Assembly (NCBI GenBank): GCA_022844165.1
Contig: JALHMH010000001.1
Span: forward strand, 96,001 to 160,000
Reading direction: 5' to 3'
Source: Lysobacterales bacterium
GTDB lineage: Bacteria; Pseudomonadota; Gammaproteobacteria; Xanthomonadales; SZUA-5
Length of the DNA: 64,000 nucleotides
This document shows positions 6,044-54,117 of the stretch, in pieces (within the stretch, counting starts at the first letter, position 1; each line of letters begins with the position of its first letter). Position numbers and translations under genes: made by a program. The notes below the pieces were generated by a model, which had not been told where the DNA came from, made no database searches, and was given only the letters and a program-made list of their open reading frames with translations.

Positions 6044-7275
6044 ACGCATACGGCGCGTTGTCGCGCCGGTCCAGTGAAGCGGTGCGAATCGGCAAAGTCC
6101 TGGTCGGCGGTTCGGCGCCGGTCGTGGTCCAATCAATGACCAATACGGACACGGCCGATATCGACAGCACCGTCAAACAAGTTGCTGAACTATGGCGCGC
6201 GGGTTCGGAGCTGGTGCGACTCACCGTCAACAACGAAGATGCAGCCGCGGCCGTGCCGCTGATCCGCGACAAACTCGCGCAGCGTGCGATCGACGTGCCG
6301 CTGATCGGCGATTTTCACTACAACGGTCACACGCTGCTGACGCGCCATCCGGCGTGCGCCGAAGCGCTGGGGAAGTACCGCATCAACCCAGGCAATGTCG
6401 GCTTTGGCGCCAAGCGCGATGTGCAGTTTGCGACCATCGTCGAAAAGGCGATCGAATATCGCAAGCCAGTGCGCATCGGCGCCAACTGGGGCAGCCTGGA
6501 TCAAGCGCTGCTGACGAAAATGATGGATGAAAACGCGGCCAGCGAGGCGCCATCCGACACAGCGACGGTGGCACGCGAGGCCTTGATCTATTCGGCGCTG
6601 CACAGCGCGGAACGTGCCCGCGAAATTGGTTTGGGCGCTGATCAGATCATCATCTCGTGCAAAGTCAGCGGCGTGCAGGAGTTGATTGCCGTGTACCGCG
6701 CACTGGCGCAACGCTGTACCTATCCGCTACACCTGGGTCTGACCGAAGCCGGTATGGGCAGCAAGGGCATTGTCGCGTCCACAGCGGCGCTCGCAGTGCT
6801 GCTGCAGGAGGGCATCGGCGACACCATTCGCATTTCGCTGACGCCAGAGCCCGGCGAGTCGCGCACGCGCGAGGTGATCGTCGCGCAAGAATTGCTGCAA
6901 ACGATGGGTCTGCGTGCATTTACGCCGATGGTGACGGCGTGTCCCGGCTGCGGGCGCACCACCAGCACCTTCTTCCAGGAACTGGCCAAGACCGTTCAAG
7001 ACCATGTGCGCGAGCGCATGCCCGAATGGCGGCTGCGCTACGACGGCGTCGAGAATCTCACGCTGGCGGTGATGGGTTGTGTCGTCAACGGCCCGGGCGA
7101 AAGCAAATACGCCAATATCGGTATCAGCCTGCCCGGCACGGGCGAGGCGCCCAGCGCGCCGGTGTTTGTCGATGGCGTCAAAGTGGCGACGCTACGCGGC
7201 GAGCGCATCAGCGAGGAGTTCGTCGCGATGATCGAAAACTACGTGCAGCAACATTACCAGCCGATCGGAGGGTAG
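6028..7275 (+). CDS. ispG: (E)-4-hydroxy-3-methylbut-2-enyl-diphosphate synthase
   Basis: [47 protein letters not shown]. Confidence 0.97.
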
Positions 7276-7277
7276 GG

Positions 7278-7808
7278 TTGAACGCACTGACGTTTCGCTT
7301 CGCCGAAGCCAGCGACGTTTCGGCGCTTGTGCAACTGGTCGAGTCGGCCTATCGCGGTGATGCATCACGTCAAGGTTGGACGACAGAAGCCGATCTGCTC
7401 GGTGGTCAACGCATCGATGCGGAAAGTCTGAATGCAACGCTGGCGAAACCCGACTCGCTCGTGGTCGTCGTCGAGCGCGATCAGACGATGCTCGGTTGCG
7501 CGCATATCGAGCGCCAGGGGACGGGCGCGTACTTCGGCATGTTTGCAGTTGTGCCGACGTTGCAAGGAGGCGGCGTCGGCGCGGCCGTTCTGGCGCACTG
7601 CGAAGGCTTCGCGCGTCAGCAATGGCAATGCGATGCCATGCGCATGAGCGTGATCTGGACACGCAAAGAATTGATCGCCTGGTATGTGCGCCGCGGTTAC
7701 GCCAGCACCGGCGAGCGCAAGCCATTTCCCTATGGCGATCCGCGTTTCGGCGAACCCCGGCGGGACGATCTGTATTTCGAGGTTTATGCAAAGGCGCTGA
7801 GCGAATGA
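7278..7808 (+). CDS. GNAT family N-acetyltransferase
   Basis: AYRGD..GWTTEADLL, FAVVPTLQGGGVG acetyl-CoA motif, WYVRRGY; TTG start just after ispG. Confidence 0.88.
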   Translation: MNALTFRFAEASDVSALVQLVESAYRGDASRQGWTTEADLLGGQRIDAESLNATLAKPDSLVVVVERDQTMLGCAHIERQGTGAYFGMFAVVPTLQGGGVGAAVLAHCEGFARQQWQCDAMRMSVIWTRKELIAWYVRRGYASTGERKPFPYGDPRFGEPRRDDLYFEVYAKALSE

Positions 7809-44774: not shown

Positions 44775-45436
44775 GCGCAGCGCTCGAAGATAAGGTCAGT
44801 GACTGCGTGTCCGAGATTGCGACCACGGCGCTCGAAATGCGTTTCGATTCTCGCGGCGCCGCGCTCGGCGCGATCGGCAACCAGCCGCAGTCGGGGCTCG
44901 GTGCCTAGCACCTCACGCATTGATTCGGCGTAAGGCTGCCAATCGGTAGCCAAATGCAATCGCCCGCCCATTCGCAGTTGCGTTGCGATGAGCGCAACAA
45001 CGTCATGGCGCACGATGCGCCGTTTGTGGTGGCGCGCTTTGGGCCAGGGGTCGGGGAAGTAAATGCGCACTTCATCGAGGCTTGCGGCGGAAAAGACGTG
45101 CAGCACTTCGATCGCATCGAATCGTATCAGCCGTAGATTGCGCAACTCGGCCGCGGCAGCGGCGCGCAAGGCGCGGCCGACGCCGGGCCCGTGTACTTCG
45201 ATGCCCAGAAAATTGCGATTCGGATCGGAACTGGCGGCGGCGATCAGCGCCTCGCCGTTGCCGAAGCCCACTTCCACGACGATCGGCGATGCCTGGAGGT
45301 ACGCAGCGCGAAGCGCGTCTTCGGCGACCGGCCAATCGATACCGAATCTTGGCCAGAGCGTTTCCAGCGCCACGCGCTGAGCTTCGGTGGTCCGCCCCTG
45401 GCGTAGCACATAGCTCTTGATGTGCCGGTCGCTCAC
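44771..45436 (-). CDS. trmB: tRNA (guanine-N7)-methyltransferase
   Basis: [35 protein letters not shown]. Confidence 0.95.
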
Positions 45437-46212
45437 TCAATCAGACCTAGTTCGGGCGACGACGCATTCGCAAATCGCTTTTTCGGTATGCGCCCGGCCA
45501 AAAAGGCTTCGCGACCGGCTTCCACTGCTTTGCGCATGGCACTGGCCATCAACACCGGATCTCTTGCGCCGGCAATCGCGGTGTTCATGAGCACACCGTC
45601 GCAGCCCAGCTCCATGGCCACGGCGGCGTCGGACGCCGTGCCGACGCCCGCATCGACGATGATCGGTACCGTTTTTTCCTCGACAATCGTCAAGATGTTG
45701 TACGGATTGCGCACGCCCAGGCCCGATCCGATCGGCGCCGCCAGCGGCATCACCGCCACGCAGCCCCGCTTGGCCAGCTCGCGCGCAACAACCGGATCGT
45801 CGTTGGTGTAGACCATTACCTGGAATCCATCGCGCACCAGAATATCGGTGGCTTTGAGCGTCTCGACGACATCTGGAAACAGCGTCTTCGTCTCGGCAAG
45901 AACTTCCAATTTGACGAGGCAGGCACCGTCCAACAACTCACGCGCAAGGCGACACGTGCGCACGGCTTCTTCGGCAGAAAAGCAGCCCGCCGTATTCGGC
46001 AAGATGGTGTACCTGTCCGGCGGCAATACGTCGAGCACGTTTGGCTGCCCAGGCAAGTTACCGATGCTGGTGCGGCGTATCGCCACGGTGACGATTTGTG
46101 CTCCGGCGGCCTCGGTGGCAAGCTGCGTTTCCGCCAAATCTCTGAATTTCCCGGTTCCCGTCAACAACCGGGACCTATAGAGCTTGCCGGCGATTTCAAG
46201 TGCATCGTTCAT
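45433..46212 (-). CDS. thiG: Thiazole synthase
   Basis: [40 protein letters not shown]. Confidence 0.96.
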
Positions 46213-46409
46213 AGTCTGTCGTTCGGGACGCATTGACGACAGCATAGCGGGACTTGCGGCACGACTCCGTGCGCTGTGCAAACGTGGCGACGGATCGCGT
46301 TGGCGATCGCGCATTACAGAACCGCGAGTCCGGCGAAGTGCAGGACCGGACTCGCGTGGGGTTGAACTGGCGCTCTCCAATCAACGGTTGAGCGCATTTC
46401 TCATTCGAA

Positions 46410-46736
46410 TCACTCGATCAAGTTGATCGCAAACCCGATAAAAGTGGTTCCGACCGCATCGTAAGTGGCAATTTGCCCGTTGGGTGCGATTGCGACAAAC
46501 GGGGTTCCTTGCCCTGAAGTCCCAGCAACAGCATGCCCATATGGCGTCACCGCCAATGCATCGTCCGGGACACCAATTTCTTCGAGGGGCGGCGTGGTCC
46601 GGGATTGAGCAACAGGATAGTTTCCGCTGTTCCACTCCGTGGTGTTCCATTTTCCATCGCTTCCCAGCCATTGGACTGAGAAATTGAATACGTACCCACC
46701 CTTATTGTTCACTGTGATTTTCTGAACTGGTCGCAT
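46410..46736 (-). CDS. Small beta-rich protein resembling domain 4 of thiol-activated (cholesterol-dependent) cytolysins
   Basis: AGGAG RBS; KITVNNKGGYVFNFSVQW and C-terminal GTTF resemble recalled CDC D4 motifs (..HSGGYVAQF.ISW, GTTL); 108 aa. Confidence 0.6.
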   Translation of the reverse strand: MRPVQKITVNNKGGYVFNFSVQWLGSDGKWNTTEWNSGNYPVAQSRTTPPLEEIGVPDDALAVTPYGHAVAGTSGQGTPFVAIAPNGQIATYDAVGTTFIGFAINLIE

Positions 46737-47046
46737 GGCAGTCTCCTGGACGAAATGAAGAGGCTGATCGCCTCATGATGTGTGATTGCGACTCGTGATC
46801 CGACCACAACAAGCGAAACTGCGAGCCGCGAAATCAGCATCCACTTGCCAGCCAGAACCTGCCTTTCGGAAACCTGTTGGTGTCGGACCACAAGCAGTTT
46901 TTGTCTGATGGAAACCTGTGCTTTCACGTTTTCATTCTTGTCCTCGTCCTGTACCAGTGTGGAGACGACCGTTGTTGTAGAGACCAGGGATCGGCTGATC
47001 GCGCGTCCAGGTCAATCGACGCAGCGTCATGCGAATCACAGGCCAA

Positions 47047-47208
47047 TCTGGCAGGCTTTGAGGAAACAGCCTGCTGGTGCGAATCGGGGATGGTTCGCTC
47101 ATGGATCGAGCACGCAAGTGGCTAACCCATGGAGACCAAGTCCGGACATGCGCCGGACTCGCGACGGGAGAAACGCACAGGAAGTGCGTTTCTCAACAAC
47201 GGGCCAGA
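47047..47208 (+). mobile_element. MITE-like element, full-length copy B (162 bp)
   Basis: Imperfect TIRs TCTGGCAGGCTTTGAGGAAA / TTTCTCAACAACGGGCCAGA; internal hairpins; 47093-47208 aligns with the reverse complement of 52633-52748. Confidence 0.65.
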
Positions 47209-47286
47209 CGGGTGGGATTCCGGACCAGATTGGATCGAGCGTGTCCGGCCAGTGCGTGGGCTGACACCACGAGCAAAGGGAGTCGG

Positions 47287-47670
47287 TCAGCCGCCGTCGC
47301 CGGTTTCGCCGTCATTGCCGACCTGCGGGTCGATAGTGAGTACCGAATCATCTTCGATCAGGATGCAATACAGATGGAGATTGCCATCGAAAATGGCACC
47401 CTGAGGAGATTCAAAGGTCGCCGCCAGTTCGTCGGCATTCCGCGAGGCGCTGCTCCAGCGTGTTTCAATGCCGGGCATATTGCCTTTTGTTGGATGAAAA
47501 CGGCAGCCGCAAAACGCGACGGTACTCGAATCCAGTTTGAAAACGATGGTTCCGCGAACGCAGCCTTTGCCGAATTGGTAGCCAGCGTTGCCCGGAGGTG
47601 GGTCAAAAGAGAAACGACCTTCCGCGACAGAGACCGAGACATTCAGAAGCGTGACAGGGGGCTTTGGCAT
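47287..47670 (-). CDS. DP-EP-family-like protein
   Basis: AAGGAG RBS; beta-rich 127 aa; C-terminal IDPQVGNDG with Gly-rich tail. Confidence 0.6.
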   Translation of the reverse strand: MPKPPVTLLNVSVSVAEGRFSFDPPPGNAGYQFGKGCVRGTIVFKLDSSTVAFCGCRFHPTKGNMPGIETRWSSASRNADELAATFESPQGAIFDGNLHLYCILIEDDSVLTIDPQVGNDGETGDGG

Positions 47671-47715
47671 TGGACAACTCCTTGGTGATTGGATTTTCAT
47701 CGGAATCATCTGCAC

Positions 47716-47832
47716 TCAGAGGCAATGCGCCCAGTGGCAGGTGATACAGCGATAGTCAAAGTGTGGATCGAATGTAGCAAAATGAGGCCCGTTCCCAAGT
47801 GTTCTCGAGCCCACGCTTGCCTTATTCGTCAT
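47716..47832 (-). CDS. Putative 38-aa peptide MTNKASVGSRTLGNGPHFATFDPHFDYRCITCHWAHCL
   Basis: ATG overlaps the TGA of the upstream receptor gene (ATGA); contains CxxCH plus HC. Confidence 0.4.
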   Translation of the reverse strand: MTNKASVGSRTLGNGPHFATFDPHFDYRCITCHWAHCL

Positions 47833-50800
47833 GGCGAAGTCGGCCCATGAACAACAACGCCGAGTTGGCCAAGTTCGACGTGCACCGGATGGCGATAGTG
47901 ACTCTTCTGCAGCAGTTGGTCTTCCACGGGAGCCGGCATTCCCGCCAACAGATGTGCCTGCACCCAAAGGGCGAGCACAGTTGGATCGCGAGAGTTTCTT
48001 GCGATAGGCGCCAATCGTGCGCGGACCAGGGCCAAATCTGCGCCGGCCTCGTCTAATCGGCCGTTGCGCGCCAGGCGTCCACCGCGGGCGATCAGTGCTC
48101 TGGCCAGCGCAGCACGACCCGGCACATCTTCTGGTGCCTGATCGACCAGCTGGCCAAGTCGCTCCAGGTCTCGGGCCTCATCTTCGTATCGCTGTTCCCG
48201 AGCGGCCAATTGGATTGCGATCAGCGCCTCCATTCGCCGCCACTCTTCAGGTGCTTGTTCGTCAGAGGACAAGGAAATGGCCACCGCATTGGCTTGTTGC
48301 AAAAGCCGGTATTCCATGTCCAATTCACCATCGGAGCGCGCCAATTCGGCTCGTTCAAGCAGCGAATGCGCCAAGTCGCGCCGCCACACGCGGTTTTCTG
48401 GCGATTTTGGTAAGAGTGCTTCGAGTCGCAAAATACTCTCATCAAACATCTCTCTGGCCTTCTTGGAACGTCCAAGTTGCAAGGCAGCTACCGCGCCTCG
48501 CCGCAGTGAATTGGCCAATCGCCGCTCCCAGGCCAGTGCAGTCGGTCGATCGCGAAGCATCGTGCGTAGTAGTGCGATCTGCTCTGCAAAGCCCTCGGCT
48601 GCCGCTTCCAGCCGCCCCTCGGCACGTTCAGCGCTGCTGATCCAGGACAACGTATCGACCAGTTCGAAGCGGAGATCCGCGTCTTCCGGGCGATGCTGCA
48701 AAGCGCGCTGTTTCAGGGCCGCAGAGTCGCGAAATCGCGCCAGCGCTTCCCGGTTACGGCCCTCGTCTTTAGCCAACGTGCCCAAATTGTTCAGCGCATA
48801 AGACTGCTCCACGAGCCATTCCGGCTCGTTCGGCGCGCGCTTCAATAGTTCTTCGGTATGCGCCAGATAACGGTGCCAGTACTCCGACGCAAGCGTGTAG
48901 TTCTTGCGCCGATAGTGGTAATAACCAAGCCAGTAGGCAGCCGTCCCCGATTCGGCGATGGCGAGAATCGAATTCGTCGATCGGCTGCGCGCCATGTCGG
49001 TCGCAACTTCGGCCGCCTCAAAGGCCGCGCGTGCTGAGCCGAGCGCACCTTGTTGCATTTGTGATTCACCCATTGTGCGTAGTGCCCGTGCCCGATTGAT
49101 CAACTCCTCCGTGCTCATGCCCGACGGATTGTCGCGGCCGAGTACCGCCAACGCCTCGCGACCGACATCGTCGAGCAAGGCGATTTGACCTAGCGGGCGC
49201 AGCTTTTCAGCCAGGTCCGCGAGCATGTAATCGGACAATCTGATGGCCTCCCGCCGCCGTACCTCAGATTCGCGTTGCGCCAGCATGGCCCATCCAGCCA
49301 TCGCGAAAGCGACCAAACTGAGTGCCACCAGAGCGCCTTGGGCAACGCGCCGCACGCGCCGCTCGCGATCCTGCCGCCGTTGCGACGCCTTGAGCAACGC
49401 GCTTTCACGAGGACAGAGCGGCTCCTGCGAACGGGCAGCAGCGTCCAAGGCCTCTTGCAGAGGCAGTCCCGGTGCCAACAAATAATCGTCGCGCCACCCG
49501 GCCTCTTCCCATGCCGTCGTAGCGCGATGCAGCCGAGCCCGCGCCTGCAGCATCCGACGATTGTCATGCACCCAATCGCGCGCACGCGGCCACTGCCGAA
49601 TCAGAGCTTCATGGGCGATACCAACATCGGGTCGGCCCTGATCGCTGCCGGCCACGAACAATCGCGCCGCAATGAAAGCGTCGACCAATGCGCAGGTCTC
49701 GATATCCGGGAGTGCCTCTCGCAAAACGCGCCTGCAAGCGCCAGCACTATCGACATCGACCGTGATCATTCGCGACAGCACACCTTCCAGGCGCGCGCGT
49801 ACACCGGCCGCAAGCGCTGCGTAGGTCTCGTCAGCCCGTCGCGCCAACGCGCCTTCCAGGCCGCCAATCGCGCGATATGCCGCAAAGCTGAGCATGCCCT
49901 TGGCGTCGCGATGTTCGTAGAGCAGCTGCAGCGTGTGCTGCAGCAGTGGCAGCGCATCGGGTTGGGCGACAGCGGCGTCGCGGAGTACATCGTCCAGTCG
50001 CAGCGCGGTGGTTGGTTCTTCTTCGAAACTCAGGCCCGATAGCAGCGCCGGCATGCGCACGATCTGTGCGATCTCGCCACTTCGAGGCGGCAGAACATCG
50101 ACGTGACCATCGCCGCCTTTGCGCTCGGCCAATCCGGGCAACGCTGCGACCAGCGCCGGATAGTAGTCTGCGCGAACGATCATGATGCATGCCGCCTTCC
50201 GGTGCGCACAGATCGCTTCGATGGACCGCCAGATCTGACTTCTGCTGTCGCTCCGGGGCTGATGGCCGGCGACCAGCGTTTCGGCATGATCAATGGTCAG
50301 AAGTGCGAAACCATCGTCGGGCGAGCTCGGTGCACGCCGCCAGGCGTCATCGAGGGCGTCGACGATGAAGTTTGCGGACTCCGATAGTTTTGCTACCAGG
50401 GCTTCGGTAGGCTGTGGCGGCAAAATCGGACGACCATCAAGCGCCCAGGTCGCCAACGACTCTGCCAATCGCGACAGAAGCGCATCTGCCTGCGCCGCCG
50501 CGAAGTCGCAATGCGCCACCGCTGCCGCGGACATGCCGTCAAACCCGCCCGCCTGCCGCAGTAGCGGAACAATGCCAGCCGACAGCAGCGAGCTTTTCCC
50601 GCAACCACTGGCGCCAACCAGGAGCACCAGCCCGTTGCCATTCTCGCGCTGCCGACGCAATGCCGCGAGTGCTTCCGCCGTTTGTCGAGTCCGACCATAG
50701 AACACATCGGCGTGCGAACCATCGAACGCCGATAGCCCCACATAAGGATCGCGCCCCGTCCACCCCGAGGTCTGCAGAGGGTGCGGGCGGTAGTCCTCGG

Positions 50801-51149
50801 GAAAGACCACTGGCGCGATCAGTCGGTATCCGCGTTTGCGAATGGTTTCGATGCACTCGGGATGCTTCGGGTCGTCTCGAAAGTGACGGCGCAACTGGGC
50901 AATCGCGCGGTGGACGGGGTTGTCGCCGTAGAACGTGCCCCGCCAGACTTCAATCAGCAACTGTTCGGCGCTGACGACCTCTCCAGCGCGCTCCGCCAAG
51001 GCGACCAGCACTTCCATCACCCGCGGTTCGAGCGCGAGGACTTGTCCGTCGCGCTCGATCGCCAACCGCTCTGGAAACACCAGGCTGGCGCCCACCCGAA
51101 AGCGCGAGGCCGATACCAAACTGCGAATTCGGTCGCTGCGTCGCGGCAT
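47829..51149 (-). CDS. CadC/ToxR-type winged-helix + STAND (nSTAND1-like) NTPase + TM + TPR protein
   Basis: LEPRVMEVL..LAERAGEVVS, IAQLRRHF.DD....IETIRKRGY wHTH; PYVGL.AF....FYGR, GASGCGKS Walker A, LLTIDHAE Walker B, ALPLLQ, HEALIRQWPR; TM; TPR-like C-terminus. Confidence 0.88.
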   Translation of the reverse strand: MPRRSDRIRSLVSASRFRVGASLVFPERLAIERDGQVLALEPRVMEVLVALAERAGEVVSAEQLLIEVWRGTFYGDNPVHRAIAQLRRHFRDDPKHPECIETIRKRGYRLIAPVVFPEDYRPHPLQTSGWTGRDPYVGLSAFDGSHADVFYGRTRQTAEALAALRRQRENGNGLVLLVGASGCGKSSLLSAGIVPLLRQAGGFDGMSAAAVAHCDFAAAQADALLSRLAESLATWALDGRPILPPQPTEALVAKLSESANFIVDALDDAWRRAPSSPDDGFALLTIDHAETLVAGHQPRSDSRSQIWRSIEAICAHRKAACIMIVRADYYPALVAALPGLAERKGGDGHVDVLPPRSGEIAQIVRMPALLSGLSFEEEPTTALRLDDVLRDAAVAQPDALPLLQHTLQLLYEHRDAKGMLSFAAYRAIGGLEGALARRADETYAALAAGVRARLEGVLSRMITVDVDSAGACRRVLREALPDIETCALVDAFIAARLFVAGSDQGRPDVGIAHEALIRQWPRARDWVHDNRRMLQARARLHRATTAWEEAGWRDDYLLAPGLPLQEALDAAARSQEPLCPRESALLKASQRRQDRERRVRRVAQGALVALSLVAFAMAGWAMLAQRESEVRRREAIRLSDYMLADLAEKLRPLGQIALLDDVGREALAVLGRDNPSGMSTEELINRARALRTMGESQMQQGALGSARAAFEAAEVATDMARSRSTNSILAIAESGTAAYWLGYYHYRRKNYTLASEYWHRYLAHTEELLKRAPNEPEWLVEQSYALNNLGTLAKDEGRNREALARFRDSAALKQRALQHRPEDADLRFELVDTLSWISSAERAEGRLEAAAEGFAEQIALLRTMLRDRPTALAWERRLANSLRRGAVAALQLGRSKKAREMFDESILRLEALLPKSPENRVWRRDLAHSLLERAELARSDGELDMEYRLLQQANAVAISLSSDEQAPEEWRRMEALIAIQLAAREQRYEDEARDLERLGQLVDQAPEDVPGRAALARALIARGGRLARNGRLDEAGADLALVRARLAPIARNSRDPTVLALWVQAHLLAGMPAPVEDQLLQKSHYRHPVHVELGQLGVVVHGPTSP

Positions 51150-51346
51150 ACCTTGGCCCCCTGGCTTTCGAATGCGGTCGAGCGATGTGGCGCGCACTTG
51201 AGCCGCAAAGTGTACACGAGTGTTGTAAGAAGTATTCCGAGTATTGCGAAAACATTGCCGAATGCAATGCTCGTTGGCGCCGGGGCAGCCAGCGTGGACC
51301 TGCGCCGATAGAATTGCGCAGGTCGAAGGATGAAGAGCCGCCCTGC

Positions 51347-52588
51347 CTAAGATTTTTCGTGCTGCTCCGTTGCGGCAAAAAACCTCACCAGTTGCTCTGC
51401 TACCTCGCGACGTTTGAGTAAGGCAAAGTGGTTCATCGCGTATCCAATCCACTGCTGGTCGCATGGGAAGCGCAGATTGTGTACAGCATCCGGGTGTTGC
51501 CCAAGCGCACTGGCGATCGACACCAGGCCATCGCCCGTCGGACGTGCGGTCGGACCTGATGATCGGCTCGCAGCCAACGCAAAACTGCGCACATTGGCTG
51601 GCAGTTCGAGTGCTGCACGTGCACCTCGGCGCCGTTCGAATCGATCGGTGCCGCGCCAGTGTTCGTCAAGCACATTGCCATAACGCAAGTCAGTAATGCC
51701 AGCGCTGCGGATCCTTGCCAAACGTGCAAATGGCGCTGAAAACCGGCTGACGCCCAGCGCCATATCGACCCAATTGCCACCCCGTTCGAGCAGTGCACCG
51801 TGGTGCGGCGTGCCGAGGAACGCGACCTTGCTCAGTTTGTCCATCCAACGGTGGCCAGACTGCTCGGCAATGTGCATCGCGCTGCGTACCACCAGCCCAC
51901 CCATGCTGTGGGCCAAGAACGCCAGCTCCTTGGGCTGCGTGCCGCACGTCTGGTACTGGCTTTCCATCAGTTCCGCCAGCTCACGGCCATTCTCAGAAAT
52001 GTGCCTGCCGCTGTTGTAACGCAGATACATCGGCGAAAAGCCATGCGCTGCGGCCAGAGCGGCGCCGTGACTGTAGTCCTCTCCGATCCACTGTCGATCG
52101 CACATACACAGACCATGGACCAGCACCAGCCACTTCGGCTCAGCGCTTCGCTCAGAGGCATTGACCAATCGGGAATGGTCGTTGATGTGCGGCGCGAGCT
52201 GCCCCTCGTGAATCAAGCGCATTTCGATCGCCAGTGGGTTACCGCTCGCCGCCAGATGATCGCCGAGCACGCCATTGAGTGCGGCGATCAAACGTTCGCG
52301 CTCGATTGACGACTCGGGGCGCTCAAGCGCTACAGGCAGCTGTTTAAGCGCCAGATCCAGTCCGCTGCCCACAAGGCGCGTCACGCCGCGCACCGTGCGA
52401 TACACCGCACCGGCAATGCCGTCGGTGCGCTCACGTGGTGCACCGATCGGTTGGGCGATGGCGCCATGCAGCGCTTCGACGAGGTCGGTCACACCTAAGG
52501 TCGCTTGCGTAGCGAGGCGCGCCAGCCCGCGGATGTCAGATCCATGCAGGGGCGGTTTTGGCAAAAGAGAGTCCCTCGCGAACGGCAA
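51347..52588 (-). CDS. PGAP1-like alpha/beta hydrolase (esterase/lipase)
   Basis: VHGLC, YNSG, AHSMGG nucleophile, LGTPHHG, GDGLV, NHF. Confidence 0.85.
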   Translation of the reverse strand: MPFARDSLLPKPPLHGSDIRGLARLATQATLGVTDLVEALHGAIAQPIGAPRERTDGIAGAVYRTVRGVTRLVGSGLDLALKQLPVALERPESSIERERLIAALNGVLGDHLAASGNPLAIEMRLIHEGQLAPHINDHSRLVNASERSAEPKWLVLVHGLCMCDRQWIGEDYSHGAALAAAHGFSPMYLRYNSGRHISENGRELAELMESQYQTCGTQPKELAFLAHSMGGLVVRSAMHIAEQSGHRWMDKLSKVAFLGTPHHGALLERGGNWVDMALGVSRFSAPFARLARIRSAGITDLRYGNVLDEHWRGTDRFERRRGARAALELPANVRSFALAASRSSGPTARPTGDGLVSIASALGQHPDAVHNLRFPCDQQWIGYAMNHFALLKRREVAEQLVRFFAATEQHEKS

Positions 52589-52632
52589 ACTGCCGCAACG
52601 CTGTTCTACGCGAGCAAGGGTCGATTTGCGGC

Positions 52633-52795
52633 TCTAACACGTTGTTGAGGAAGTACTTAACAGCACCTTCTCAACGTCGCGAGTCCAGCGCAGGTCTGGG
52701 CTCGCTCTGCATGGCTCCAGCACTCGCGTGCTCGATCCGTGGTCGAACTCAGCGACAGGCCCGCTTCGTTCGACAGCGCACGGGCGACGCGCTAA
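52633..52795 (-). mobile_element. MITE-like element, full-length copy C (163 bp, inverted)
   Basis: Reverse complement aligns with copy B over ~115 nt; ends TCTAACACGTTGTTGAG and CGGGCGACGCGCTAA; one end overlaps the MFS stop codon. Confidence 0.6.
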
Positions 52796-54117
52796 TCGGC
52801 CACGTGGCTGCCCTTCGGCAACTCCAATCCATGACCATGCGGACCGCGCTCAGTGCGCCAAAGCAAGAAAGAGAACACCAGCCCCAGTGCCGAGAGCGCC
52901 GTGTAAAACCACATGCCGGAGGCATATCCGGCTGGATTGGTTTCGCTCGCCTGACCCCAGTCATTGAGCACGCCGATGATCAGCGGAACGACAGCCCAAC
53001 CCAGTTGTTGGCAAAAGGTCATCAACGAGTACGCCGACCCTAAGCGGCGAGGGTCCACGATGTAGGCAACCGCAGGCCACATTACTGCTGGGATCAATGA
53101 AAACACGCCGCCCAGCAACACGATGACCACGAGCAGCGTCAACGGCACCGCGCCGCTATCGAAGAAGGGCAGCGCGATGAGCGGGCCGGGCGGCAGATAG
53201 GTGACGGCCAGAAACAACGGCAACATCACCAATGAGCCGATCGCCATGAACCAGGAGCGTCGACCAACGCGGTCAACCAGCAATCCGAAAAGTGGTGTGG
53301 CAAAAATGGCCGACAGCGGCAACAGACTGCTCAGCATGCCTGCCGTTTCGCGGTCCAGGCCATGCGCTGTCTGGAAGTAGTTGATGGCAAAGCCGCGGAA
53401 CGGAAACACCGTCGAATAGAACACAACGCACAGCGCTACGATGTACCAGTACGACTTCGAAAACTGGTAAAGGCCCCGAAATTCCAGACGATCCACGTCG
53501 CCGCCGCGGCCCAGATCGACACAACCTTCCAGGCGACGCTCTGTCATCCAGTAGAGCATCGCCGCCGTGAGCGCCACCGCTGCCACACCGGTGGCGAGCC
53601 ACAGAGGATCTTGCCAGTTGCTGTACAGCGGGCTGGCAAACGATGTCGACCAATCAGCCGACGCTGAGCCCAGCCGTGAAATCGAAAGATTGATGCCGAA
53701 AGCGAAACTCAGCTCGCGACCGCGAAACCACTTCGCCAGAACGGTGGTTACGGCGACGATCAAAGGCTCGGCGCCCAGGCCCAGAACAAAGCGGCTGGCC
53801 AGAATGACTTCGTACTGGCTGGTCGCCACGGTCAGCAAAGCCGCGAGCAGACAGAGCGCTGCGAACACGACGATTGCGTTTCGCGCACCGAACCGGTCGA
53901 TGACATAACCGCCAGCCAGCAGAACGAGCAGCGCTGCAACACTGTATGCCGTCGACAGGAGGCCGATTTGCTGAAAACTGAAACCGAGTTGCGAACGCAT
54001 CAGATCGACCACCGGGCCAATCGAATCGTAGATGTAGTAGTTGCCGAACATGGCCAGGCTCACCAGCATCAATGCCAGCCAGCGTTGTGCGGTGGTCGGT
54101 CCAGGTAATGCGTTCAT
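52792..54117 (-). CDS. MFS transporter (MFSD1-like)
   Basis: About 12 hydrophobic segments; GYVIDRFG and GLLVDRVGRR MFS loop motifs. Confidence 0.9.
   Translation of the reverse strand: MNALPGPTTAQRWLALMLVSLAMFGNYYIYDSIGPVVDLMRSQLGFSFQQIGLLSTAYSVAALLVLLAGGYVIDRFGARNAIVVFAALCLLAALLTVATSQYEVILASRFVLGLGAEPLIVAVTTVLAKWFRGRELSFAFGINLSISRLGSASADWSTSFASPLYSNWQDPLWLATGVAAVALTAAMLYWMTERRLEGCVDLGRGGDVDRLEFRGLYQFSKSYWYIVALCVVFYSTVFPFRGFAINYFQTAHGLDRETAGMLSSLLPLSAIFATPLFGLLVDRVGRRSWFMAIGSLVMLPLFLAVTYLPPGPLIALPFFDSGAVPLTLLVVIVLLGGVFSLIPAVMWPAVAYIVDPRRLGSAYSLMTFCQQLGWAVVPLIIGVLNDWGQASETNPAGYASGMWFYTALSALGLVFSFLLWRTERGPHGHGLELPKGSHVAD

Follow-up and report, generated by a model that had tools for sequence, protein, structure and literature searches.

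A wHTH-nSTAND1-TM-TPR receptor and a DP-EP-like partner as an undescribed two-gene module in a Lysobacterales bacterium

Introduction

Among STAND regulators with a transcriptional output is MalT. AfsR, a STAND activator with a wHTH output, is presented as a SARP + NOD + TPR activator (PMC10936776; see also bioRxiv 10.64898/2026.09.02.748808). AfsR, other large SARP and the MalT-type proteins resemble the receptor analysed here in uniting an OmpR-type winged-helix output, a STAND/NOD NTPase and a TPR sensor in one polypeptide, as well as in the expected logic of sensor-released, nucleotide-dependent oligomerisation leading to transcription. The idea of an NLR-like receptor with a transcription output, put forward in the preliminary description of this locus, has precedents in AfsR (PMC10936776) and in MalT. 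Our receptor differs from the AfsR/MalT type in its NTPase, which is nSTAND1 instead of NB-ARC, with no BTAD match among the Pfam matches listed; in a predicted transmembrane (TM) helix lying between the NTPase and the TPR region; in a conserved DP-EP-like partner gene; and in its host, a gammaproteobacterium instead of an actinomycete. What is new relative to known STAND regulators is the predicted membrane-spanning layout, together with a partner of the DP-EP kind.

Small partner genes such as those of ToxS and PsaF often lie directly downstream of membrane-bound one-component activators. For this type of arrangement, see also PMC8407435. ToxR-ToxS, CadC and PsaE-PsaF share with the predicted layout of our receptor a cytoplasmic N-terminal OmpR-type wHTH, one TM helix and an extracytoplasmic sensor. 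Unlike ToxR, CadC and PsaE, the receptor has a TPR sensor and carries a STAND NTPase of roughly 420 residues that sets its wHTH apart from its TM helix; unlike ToxS and PsaF, its partner is of the DP-EP kind and has neither a TM helix nor a visible signal peptide.

The only studied relative of the partner family, SO1698 from Shewanella oneidensis (DP-EP PF08985, formerly DUF1888; PDB 3njh and related entries), is similar in length, at about 125 aa, and in its end, xDPQ(I/V)xNxP; it is said to cleave itself, and we know of no description of it in a receptor context. PMC11655445, citing Osipiuk 2012, calls it a self-cleaving endopeptidase.

Bacterial NLR-like, Avs and NACHT antiphage STAND proteins likewise have a repeat-type sensor coupled to a STAND NTPase. 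In contrast to these, the receptor described here has a DNA-binding domain as its output instead of a nuclease, TIR or protease, is predicted to span the membrane, and receives weak P-loop matches only from the PADLOC models.

Results and discussion

Receptor architecture

The locus lies in the window, the stretch of 64,000 nucleotides that was analysed, and is flanked by thiG (PF05690, E 3.6e-107; Pfam) and a PGAP1-like hydrolase gene (PF07819, E 5.9e-7; Pfam). An Rfam scan of positions 45000-53000 gave zero matches at E <= 0.1. The receptor comprises the following features.

47829..51149, minus strand: receptor gene, 1106 aa, wHTH + nSTAND1 NTPase + TM + TPR tail (ORF list, Pfam, homologue alignments)
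50820..51047, minus strand: OmpR/CadC-type winged-helix DNA-binding domain, residues 35-110 (Pfam Trans_reg_C, E 3.7e-18)
49494..50747, minus strand: nSTAND1 STAND NTPase module, residues 135-552 (Pfam PF20703, E 2.6e-81)
50592-50615, minus strand: Walker A motif GASGCGKS, residues 179-186 (motif positions)
50280-50303, minus strand: LLTIDHAE motif, residues 283-290 (motif positions)
49278..49346, minus strand: single predicted TM helix, residues 602-624 (hydropathy)
47832..49232, minus strand: TPR-like C-terminal region, residues 640-1106 (weak Pfam TPR matches, clear in homologues)

The start was placed at the Met at 51149, from which the homologues align, within a longest ORF that reaches 51464. 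Pfam matches, the hydropathy peak and the TPR matches of homologues bear out the domain order wHTH-STAND-TM-TPR of the preliminary description. The P-loop domain is STAND-class as had been proposed, its PF20703 match scoring 274.6 bits, where the cut-off is 27.1, and covering profile positions 1-376 of 379. The wHTH resembles the NCBIfam CadC N-terminus (E 1.1e-18, far under the model cut-off); identity with CadC itself was ruled out by a score of 67.5 bits against the NCBIfam equivalog cut-off of 400. In the window receptor, all TPR matches fall under the Pfam cut-offs (ANAPC3, 8.6e-4; TPR_2, 0.01), and homologues match clearly, e.g. L165 with TPR_12 at 2.5e-11 (Pfam). Topology was derived from hydropathy alone: residues 602-624 form the sole strong peak (Kyte-Doolittle 2.14 over 19 residues), and by eye the homologues have a hydrophobic segment at the matching place. 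Because this single helix separates the cytoplasmic wHTH-nSTAND1 part from the TPR region, the latter is predicted to lie outside the cytoplasm.

The DP-EP-like partner

Directly downstream of the receptor region lies the second gene.

47287..47670, minus strand: DP-EP (DUF1888)-like partner, 127 aa (RBS AAGGAG, hhalign, conserved position)
47290-47331, minus strand: conserved tail of the partner, DPQVGNDGETGDGG

The earlier guess that this protein is DP-EP-like is supported by profile comparison. It has no Pfam (including DP-EP) or NCBIfam match of its own and is missed by the HMM of A6, the set of 30 receptor-adjacent partners. Nevertheless, hhalign of A8, its own 8-member subfamily, against A6 gave 93.5% with E 2.3e-7 over 110 columns. 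Within A6, 9 of the 30 partners match Pfam DP-EP PF08985 at E <= 0.1 (best 1.9e-5), and the A6 profile matches PDB 3njh_A 'Peptidase' (E 0.0051) over chain residues 41-127, including the DPQ tail. Atlas neighbours of the partners are DP-EP clusters, with a language-model score of 0.93 for the window partner. The window partner is related to SO1698 and to DP-EP at the profile-profile level only. With a pLDDT of 53.4, the AF2 model is too poor to establish the fold, and in an alignment built from three sequences only the last 17-26 residues aligned. Conservation centres on the C-terminal tail, with the pattern xDPQVxNxP; D and P are invariant across A6, as is DPQVGNDG in the window-type subfamily. 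The body evolves fast, with a mean p-distance of 0.70 that equals that of the TPR region.

Conservation of the gene pair

The neighbourhood survey confirmed linkage of the DP-EP-like gene to receptor homologues: a partner-profile match lies directly downstream, on the receptor strand, in 27 of the 30 loci with a receptor homologue, the other three having no detectable partner. Outside the loci that had supplied the partner profile, 19 of 22 match (the misses being L033, L126 and L127). The window-type partner subfamily has two real metagenome loci, and both adjoin receptors; in one of them, L188, the receptor is 68% identical to that of the window and the partner follows after a gap of 160 nt. 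Across 24 pairs, partner distances correlate with those of the TPR region (Pearson 0.61) more than with those of the NOD (0.39) or wHTH (0.35), and the partial correlation is 0.67 for the TPR region versus -0.51 (24 pairs). This mirror-tree signal is weak (Spearman 0.19), and the sequences, being related, are not independent data points.

Twenty extra partner loci, chosen from 70 places, were surveyed for the protein encoded upstream. A divergent wHTH-nSTAND1-TM-TPR protein was present in eight, and in 11 the upstream protein had only the TM-TPR part in common with the receptor; in the remaining locus (L168), no receptor was found within 4.5 kb. Six of these 11 carry Pkinase and three TIR_2 (Pfam), and two are cut by contig ends, so that Ser/Thr-kinase (six loci) and TIR (three loci) heads replace wHTH-nSTAND1 within the same bacterial order. 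The present genome itself has a Pkinase-TM-TPR gene that overlaps by 10 nt with a following gene for a 119-aa protein matching PF08985 (E 6.4e-4). The TPR-like region (residues 640-1106) is the sole receptor part common to the kinase- and TIR-headed receptors. Because TM-TPR plus partner also carries kinase and TIR heads, the partner is tied to the sensor half, TM-TPR, and the head serves as an output that can be exchanged. The conserved unit is therefore the receptor plus its DP-EP-like partner, two genes instead of four, and constitutes an undescribed module.

Proposed mechanism and alternatives

We consider it reasonably probable that the module is a membrane-spanning one-component regulator with the DP-EP-like protein as co-sensor or modulator. 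With wHTH and nSTAND1 in the cytoplasm, one TM helix and the TPR region outside, the TPR half would sense an envelope or extracytoplasmic cue. Relay of this cue across the membrane would release NTP-dependent oligomerisation of nSTAND1, which would gather the winged helices on DNA and activate transcription, as in AfsR/MalT-type and ToxR/CadC-type activators. The partner may work via its conserved tail, possibly after self-cleavage at Asp114-Pro115, as is told of SO1698. Direct contact between tail and TPR region would need export or another contact site, since the partner has no signal peptide and the TPR region is predicted to be extracytoplasmic.

A less likely account, which we entertain tentatively, makes the pair an immune or conflict module, in which the TM-TPR receptor and its fast-evolving partner sense an invader (phage or competitor) and the head sets the response: NAD+ depletion by TIR, phospho-signalling by the kinase, and induction of defence or toxin cargo by the wHTH-nSTAND1 of the window. 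The TIR_2/ThsB_TIR heads on the same TM-TPR + partner chassis (three loci) speak for it, as do the first naming of nSTAND1 in counter-invader systems (PMC8195603), the divergence of the partner body as fast as that of the TPR region, and the patchy spread of the receptor N-half, which 35 of 299 genomes from this order have. Some relatives also have variable secreted or toxin-like genes after the pair; in G024 one resembles TcdA/TcdB glycosyltransferases (E 3.4e-15) and another ETX/MTX2 pore formers (E 2.2e-5), and in the window there is the D4-like gene only. Against it, no PADLOC system is matched (the weak P-loop matches are mad8, 6.5e-4, and mad3, 2.9e-3), and the ORF list and Pfam show housekeeping genes around the window locus and none of phage or mobile type. 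Moreover, ordinary envelope signalling explains the kinase and transcription outputs equally well.

Short or C-terminal peptides are common ligands of TPR domains, which lends some appeal to an RRNPP-like cell-cell or self-signalling pair, in which the partner would self-cleave at Asp-Pro and the freed C-terminal peptide of ~13 residues would be the TPR ligand. The tail is indeed the only part kept in all partners and aligns with the DPQ of PDB 3njh, and some modules (L166, L176, L113 and L173) encode a further copy of the partner whose N-terminus, judged by eye, resembles a signal peptide. However, the tail carries little signal specificity, because it is near-identical across receptors that are only 25-50% identical; the window partner lacks a signal peptide, and no exporter gene adjoins it; and the cleaved peptide of SO1698 reportedly remains bound in the fold. 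We regard this peptide-signal reading as improbable.

Downstream ORFs

Two further ORFs had been assigned to the system.

47716..47832, minus strand: 38-aa ORF with CITCH, probably no gene and outside the module
46410..46736, minus strand: 108-aa beta-sandwich protein, cytolysin-D4-like fold (RBS AGGAG, AF2, Foldseek)

The ORF list of the window confirms the four co-oriented ORFs on the minus strand; as genes, three of the four are credible and the micropeptide is unsupported. The ATG of the 38-aa ORF overlaps the receptor stop (ATGA). No RBS was seen, Pfam, NCBIfam and PADLOC models gave no family match, and relatives are absent from 12 related loci (10 homologue loci plus L188 and L189). The CxxCH micropeptide was rejected as a module member, having no relative even beside the 68%-identical receptor of L188, and the ORF is probably spurious.

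The 108-aa ORF is a real gene of a separate family, a neighbour instead of a conserved module member. The suggestion of a cytolysin D4-like protein held at the fold level: its AF2 model (pLDDT 95.5) has CDC domain 4 as top Foldseek and VIA matches, with 1pfo at Foldseek E 4.0e-5 and VIA Z 8.6 (rmsd 4.0 with 94 residues aligned), near-equal VIA scores being found for the PepT2 ectodomain (Z 8.2) and transthyretin (Z 7.6). It shares the beta-sandwich fold of CDC domain 4 and differs in standing alone, without pore-forming domains or a Pfam cytolysin match. A gap of 550 nt without a credible gene separates it from the 127-aa ORF.

That receptor, micropeptide, DP-EP-like and D4-like proteins act jointly as a four-gene system, the small proteins being ligands, modulators or effectors, is highly improbable despite their shared orientation and a D4-like gene 0.55-4 kb downstream of the pair in the window, L041 (94% identical to that of the window) and G024 (about 25-29%), since, of 39 genomic loci of the D4-like family, one adjoins a receptor, the family HMM matches 2 of 52 receptor/partner loci (with varied downstream reach, in some only 0.8-2.5 kb), L188, with the closest receptor relative, has no D4-like gene within 1.6 kb, and the micropeptide has no conserved counterpart. 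The D4-like family, with 117 homologues, is highly constrained and patchily distributed. Unlike CDC domain 4, the family most often neighbours a D4-like::FAD/ALO oxidase fusion, which follows it in 12 of 39 loci and bears a second copy of the domain.

Locus layout and receptor architecture

The preliminary description had placed four co-oriented minus-strand open reading frames (ORFs) between thiG (PF05690, E 3.6e-107) and a gene for a PGAP1-like hydrolase (PF07819, E 5.9e-7), and all four were recovered there from the ORF list and the Pfam searches:

46410–46736, minus strand, 108-aa D4-like ORF (fold resembling domain 4, D4, of cholesterol-dependent cytolysins, CDCs), AGGAG upstream
47287–47670, minus strand, 127-aa DP-EP-like ORF (the partner), AAGGAG upstream
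47716–47832, minus strand, 38-aa ORF with CITCH (the micropeptide), ATG overlapping the receptor stop, no ribosome-binding site seen
47829–51149, minus strand, 1106-aa receptor

The receptor start was assigned to the Met at 51149, which gives 1106 residues, because homologue alignments begin there. Its features are as follows:

Residues 35–110, Trans_reg_C (PF00486), an OmpR/PhoB-type winged helix (wHTH); Pfam E 3.7e-18, 65.8 bits against a gathering cut-off of 26.2
Residues 135–552, nSTAND1 (PF20703); Pfam E 2.6e-81, 274.6 bits against a cut-off of 27.1, profile positions 1–376 of 379
Residues 179–186, Walker A, GASGCGKS
Residues 283–290, LLTIDHAE, with the Walker B-type hhhhD as LLTID at 283–287
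Residues 602–624, predicted transmembrane (TM) helix, one strong hydropathy peak

The domain description given earlier was thus correct, including both quoted motifs, and the NTPase is STAND-class, as the nSTAND1 match lies far above the Pfam cut-off. TPR matches on the window receptor remained under the Pfam cut-offs, and its homologues score clearly. The N-terminal wHTH found by Pfam and the single peak at 602–624 would fit a ToxR/CadC-like layout with a putative extracytoplasmic C-terminal sensor, membrane topology being judged from hydropathy. The CadC equivalog NF007540 (NCBIfam) reached 67.5 bits against a cut-off of 400, with the match limited to residues 15–115, and neither BTAD nor NB-ARC was among the 14 Pfam families listed for E ≤ 0.1. 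Receptor homologues were found in 17 of 59 related genomes (E ≤ 1e-40) and the N-terminal half in 35 of 299 genomes of the order (E ≤ 1e-50); among 400 class-sample genomes, with two candidates scored per genome, only the window's own genome matched at E ≤ 1e-80.

The 127-aa and 108-aa ORFs, which have no significant Pfam or NCBIfam match of their own, lie 550 nt apart, with no credible gene in the ORF list and no Rfam match in the intervening stretch. A promoter scan of the locus returned no promoter-like sites, and five terminator-like sites against 5.2 expected. The sequencing runs that contain the locus are drinking-water metagenome DNA, with no RNA run listed. For comparison regarding an insertion at the locus, thiG and the PGAP1-like gene sit on separate contigs in five relatives. 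No system model of PADLOC-DB 2.0 matched; the P-loop region gave weak scores for mad8 (6.5e-4) and mad3 (2.9e-3), and the small proteins gave none.

A conserved receptor–partner gene pair

Neighbourhoods were fetched for 30 receptor homologues, and in 27 of these loci a partner profile matched the same-strand ORF directly downstream of the receptor. The profile was built from eight of the 30 loci, and 19 of the 22 non-contributing loci match. The profile found no partner at loci L033, L126 and L127, the last of which carries a truncated receptor, and three of the 30 loci hold tandem double copies. Both real metagenome loci of the window partner's own subfamily adjoin receptors; at one fetched locus, L188, a gap of 160 nt separates a 68%-identical receptor from the 57%-identical partner downstream of it. 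The conserved unit is the receptor together with its DP-EP-like partner. Of the linkages to small genes that the preliminary description had put forward for survey, the one to DP-EP-like genes was borne out by these loci, and the one to D4-like genes was not, a receptor lying near the D4-like gene in only one of 39 loci (L041, a Lysobacteraceae MAG).

Relationship of the partner to DP-EP proteins

An alignment of 30 receptor-adjacent partners (A6) showed a C-terminal tail, CDPQVxNxP, with an invariant Asp-Pro and a further invariant Pro. The corresponding D114-P115 of the window partner is invariant across A6, the alignment around the window partner (A1) and that of its eight-member subfamily (A8). 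Nine of the 30 A6 partners match the DP-EP family PF08985 at E ≤ 0.1 (best 1.9e-5). Searched against the PDB, the A6 profile reached (E 0.0051) the 128-aa "Peptidase" 3njh_A, together with the mutants of that series, in an alignment spanning chain residues 41–127, through ...DPQIINRPQ; A6 alone reached 3njh, and the profiles of A1, A3 and A8 retrieved nothing relevant from the PDB. We take 3njh to be SO1698 of Shewanella oneidensis, a DUF1888 protein. Work by Osipiuk et al. (J Biol Chem, 2012) is said to have found that SO1698 cleaves itself at the Asp-Pro bond. A passage of PMC11655445 describes it, second-hand, as a self-cleaving endopeptidase.

The window partner itself is more distant. PF08985 did not match the 127-aa protein at E ≤ 0.1 nor anything in its own genome at E ≤ 10; it gave no match in 401 class-sample genomes, where the controls likewise matched nowhere, which makes that search uninformative. 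The A6 HMM matched none of the own-genome ORFs, the window partner included, and the tail pattern DP[QE]..N occurred in six of them against 6.15 expected from shuffled tails, only the window protein looking credible. Both of these searches missed a second own-genome partner, on contig C46, that was later located by position. A three-sequence comparison of the window partner aligned only the last 17–26 residues, and its AlphaFold2 (AF2) model from A1 was poor (pLDDT 53.4). A profile search enlarged the subfamily to the eight sequences of A8, and hhalign of A8 against A6 then gave 93.5% (E 2.3e-7) over 110 columns, the full length. The language-model neighbours of the window partner are the same DP-EP-bearing clusters as those of a canonical partner (0.93 and 0.95). 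The window protein is assigned to the partner family as a divergent member, and its position, its size and its tail DPQVGNDG agree with this assignment. Partner clusters number roughly 310. As a separate observation, a 3721-aa protein in the representatives library (P0214) contains 11 stretches that match the partner profile, so that the DP-EP-like domain is also found repeated within one very large protein.

Exchangeable heads on the TM-TPR half

The A6 profile matched 49 of 299 genomes of the order, with 70 places listed. Twenty of these, none beside a receptor already found, were taken, and 4.5 kb upstream was fetched for each. Divergent wHTH-nSTAND1-TM-TPR proteins lay upstream at eight (two recognized by Pfam, six by blastp to the three parts of the window receptor), and at 11 the upstream protein has only the TM-TPR part in common with the window receptor; the remaining locus, L168, had no receptor within the 4.5 kb. 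Of the 11 TM-TPR-only proteins, nine were searched against Pfam, and of these six carry Pkinase and three carry TIR_2/ThsB_TIR; the other two of the 11 are cut by contig ends. The partner gene accompanies the TM-TPR half, and the cytoplasmic head is exchangeable.

Two genes in the window's own genome (G000), at G000:C46:8278–11125 and G000:C8:130649–133843, encode Pkinase-TM-TPR proteins paralogous to the sensor half of the receptor. The former overlaps by 10 nt the downstream gene for a 119-aa protein whose C-terminus reads DPAVVFEPE. This protein matches PF08985 at E 6.4e-4, its 20.5 bits staying under the cut-off of 25, and gives only 29% in hhalign to A6. Downstream of the C8 paralogue, a 142-aa ORF ending GDPE was considered as a partner and is doubtful, as no support for it was found.

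Inspection by eye identified a signal-peptide-like N-terminus on one DP-EP-like copy that is absent from its neighbour in the two-copy modules L166 (798–1232), L176 (798–1244) and L113 (4380–4844), and in the TIR module L173 (4243–4878). Such mixed copies suggest that partners lie on both sides of the membrane; the window partner, like wHTH-nSTAND1-type partners generally, has by eye no signal peptide. Across 24 receptor–partner pairs, partner distance correlated with that of the TPR region (Pearson 0.61), the NTPase part (NOD, 0.39) and the wHTH (0.35), with partial correlations of 0.67 (TPR) and −0.51. Because Spearman was only 0.19 and the pairs include related, non-independent sequences, this closer tracking of the TPR region is a hint only.

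Genes outside the pair

CITCH is present in the 38-aa ORF, as had been claimed. The ORF has no family match in Pfam, NCBIfam or PADLOC, and no relative was found in 10 homologue loci or in L188 and L189; at L188 the equivalent gap contains an unrelated ORF without CxxCH. The micropeptide is a bystander.

The AF2 model of the 108-aa D4-like protein had a pLDDT of 95.5, and its best Foldseek matches were domain 4 of perfringolysin, pneumolysin, listeriolysin and relatives (E 3.2e-5 to 1e-3). In VIA, CDC domain 4 gave Z 8.6 (94 residues aligned, rmsd 4.0), with the PepT2 ectodomain (8.2) and transthyretin (7.6) slightly lower. At sequence level no cytolysin family was found in Pfam, the only hit being DUF4774 at E 0.0063, below its cut-off. 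The protein has 117 homologues and 39 species-level genome loci, with up to 94% identity, assigned by record title to at least six phyla, Pseudomonadota, Acidobacteriota, Actinomycetota, Bacteroidota, Verrucomicrobiota and Planctomycetota. Within the family dS is saturated, dN is 0.035–0.2 and dN/dS, where computable, is about 0.02; saturated dS with low dN implies strong constraint and speaks against recent transfer. In 12 of the 39 loci the next protein is a second D4-like domain fused to a FAD_binding_4/ALO oxidase, a fusion that was not found in the own genome. A D4 HMM matched two of 52 receptor/partner loci, in many of which the downstream reach is short. The D4-like gene is real and is a bystander of the receptor–partner module; its association with the receptor is loose and limited by lineage (the window, L041 and the related genome G024), and could stem from variable "cargo" carried downstream of the pair. 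The four-gene system first proposed is accordingly not supported, as two of its genes are bystanders, the micropeptide without relatives in the loci compared and the D4-like gene rarely receptor-linked, which makes the finding a cautionary one as well.

An imperfect 24-nt inverted repeat (46323–46346 and 47140–47163, 79% complementary) flanks a stretch made up of the D4-like gene and roughly 400 nt on its upstream side. The repeat is probably due to chance, since nucleotide similarity among the D4-like loci (L041–L079 and the window) ends at the coding sequence.

Relatives carry other genes downstream of the pair. At L032 (G024:C48, 6003–10437), four genes lie beyond a 50%-identical receptor and its partner, encoding an XRE-type HTH protein (HTH_31, E 0.001), a TcdA/TcdB-like glycosyltransferase (PF12919, E 3.4e-15), a distant D4-like protein, which tblastn missed and HMMER found, and an ETX/MTX2 aerolysin-like protein (E 2.2e-5). 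These may be regulated toxin-like cargo. A conserved XRE-type HTH gene follows the pair at L032 (6814–7206), L033 (7095–7514), L034 (re-oriented, 6845–7447) and L041 (4203–4715), and a family of about 91–112 aa (GGWS.F.F..TP.AK..F...), with no Pfam match above noise, occurs downstream of pairs at L031 (7281–8086), L033 (6022–6309) and L034 (re-oriented, 6524–6799). No remnants of the relatives' HTH, secreted, glycosyltransferase or pore-former genes were found in the window or its genome.

Proposed working and relation to known systems

With a wHTH that has to be in the cytoplasm and a single TM helix, the TPR half should lie outside. A cue sensed by this outer half would license NTP-dependent oligomerisation of nSTAND1, which would bring the winged helices together on DNA, and the partner would be tied to the sensor half via its conserved tail. 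A possible, and by our own estimate rather unlikely, general account is that a constant TM-TPR half with an obligate DP-EP partner, whose invariant Asp-Pro tail would serve as a self-cleaving "fuse" or a docking tag, is joined to a swapped head, wHTH-nSTAND1, Ser/Thr kinase or TIR, for output as transcription, phosphorylation or NAD+-type chemistry, respectively. If this were true, the window would encode a genuine NLR-like transcription factor that spans the membrane, and the DUF1888 self-cleaving fold would gain its first biological role.

Membrane-bound wHTH activators with small partners are known from the ToxRS type. STAND transcription regulators and membrane wHTH activators are both established, and the function of the window module is putative. 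The logic proposed for the window receptor combines that of AfsR and MalT, in which STAND oligomerisation leads to transcription, with the membrane wHTH logic of ToxR and CadC. AfsR is presented in PMC10936776 as a STAND regulator with transcriptional output, and the definition of nSTAND1 appears in PMC8195603. AfsR and the large SARPs possess BTAD and an NB-ARC-type NOD, whereas neither gave a Pfam match at E ≤ 0.1 in the window receptor, whose NOD is nSTAND1. The literature search covered main texts outside subscription journals; within it, no STAND NTPase between a wHTH and a TM-TPR sensor, no head-swapped receptor family, no biological partner of a DP-EP protein and no biological context for the DP-EP family, PF08985/DUF1888 or SO1698 were found.

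What the window contributes is the wHTH-nSTAND1 version and a comparison of three head types within the same order. As far as found, the DP-EP/DUF1888 fold has so far been known only as a self-cutting structural-genomics curiosity; a DP-EP-like protein as the constant companion of TM-TPR receptors with interchangeable outputs provides a testable role for a self-cleaving protein. Among these outputs, the NLR-like NTPase joined to a DNA-binding domain is a bacterial STAND switch that would need to be driven across the membrane, and the head-swapped receptors offer a natural set in which to ask how a single sensor can drive three kinds of output chemistry.

The own genome also encodes, at G000:C49:23897–27877, a 1326-aa protein that is 30% identical to the receptor's nSTAND1 region. 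Judged by eye, its N-terminus is TIR-like and its C-terminus carries WD40-like repeats, which would make it a soluble paralogue with nSTAND1 of the kind seen in conflict systems.
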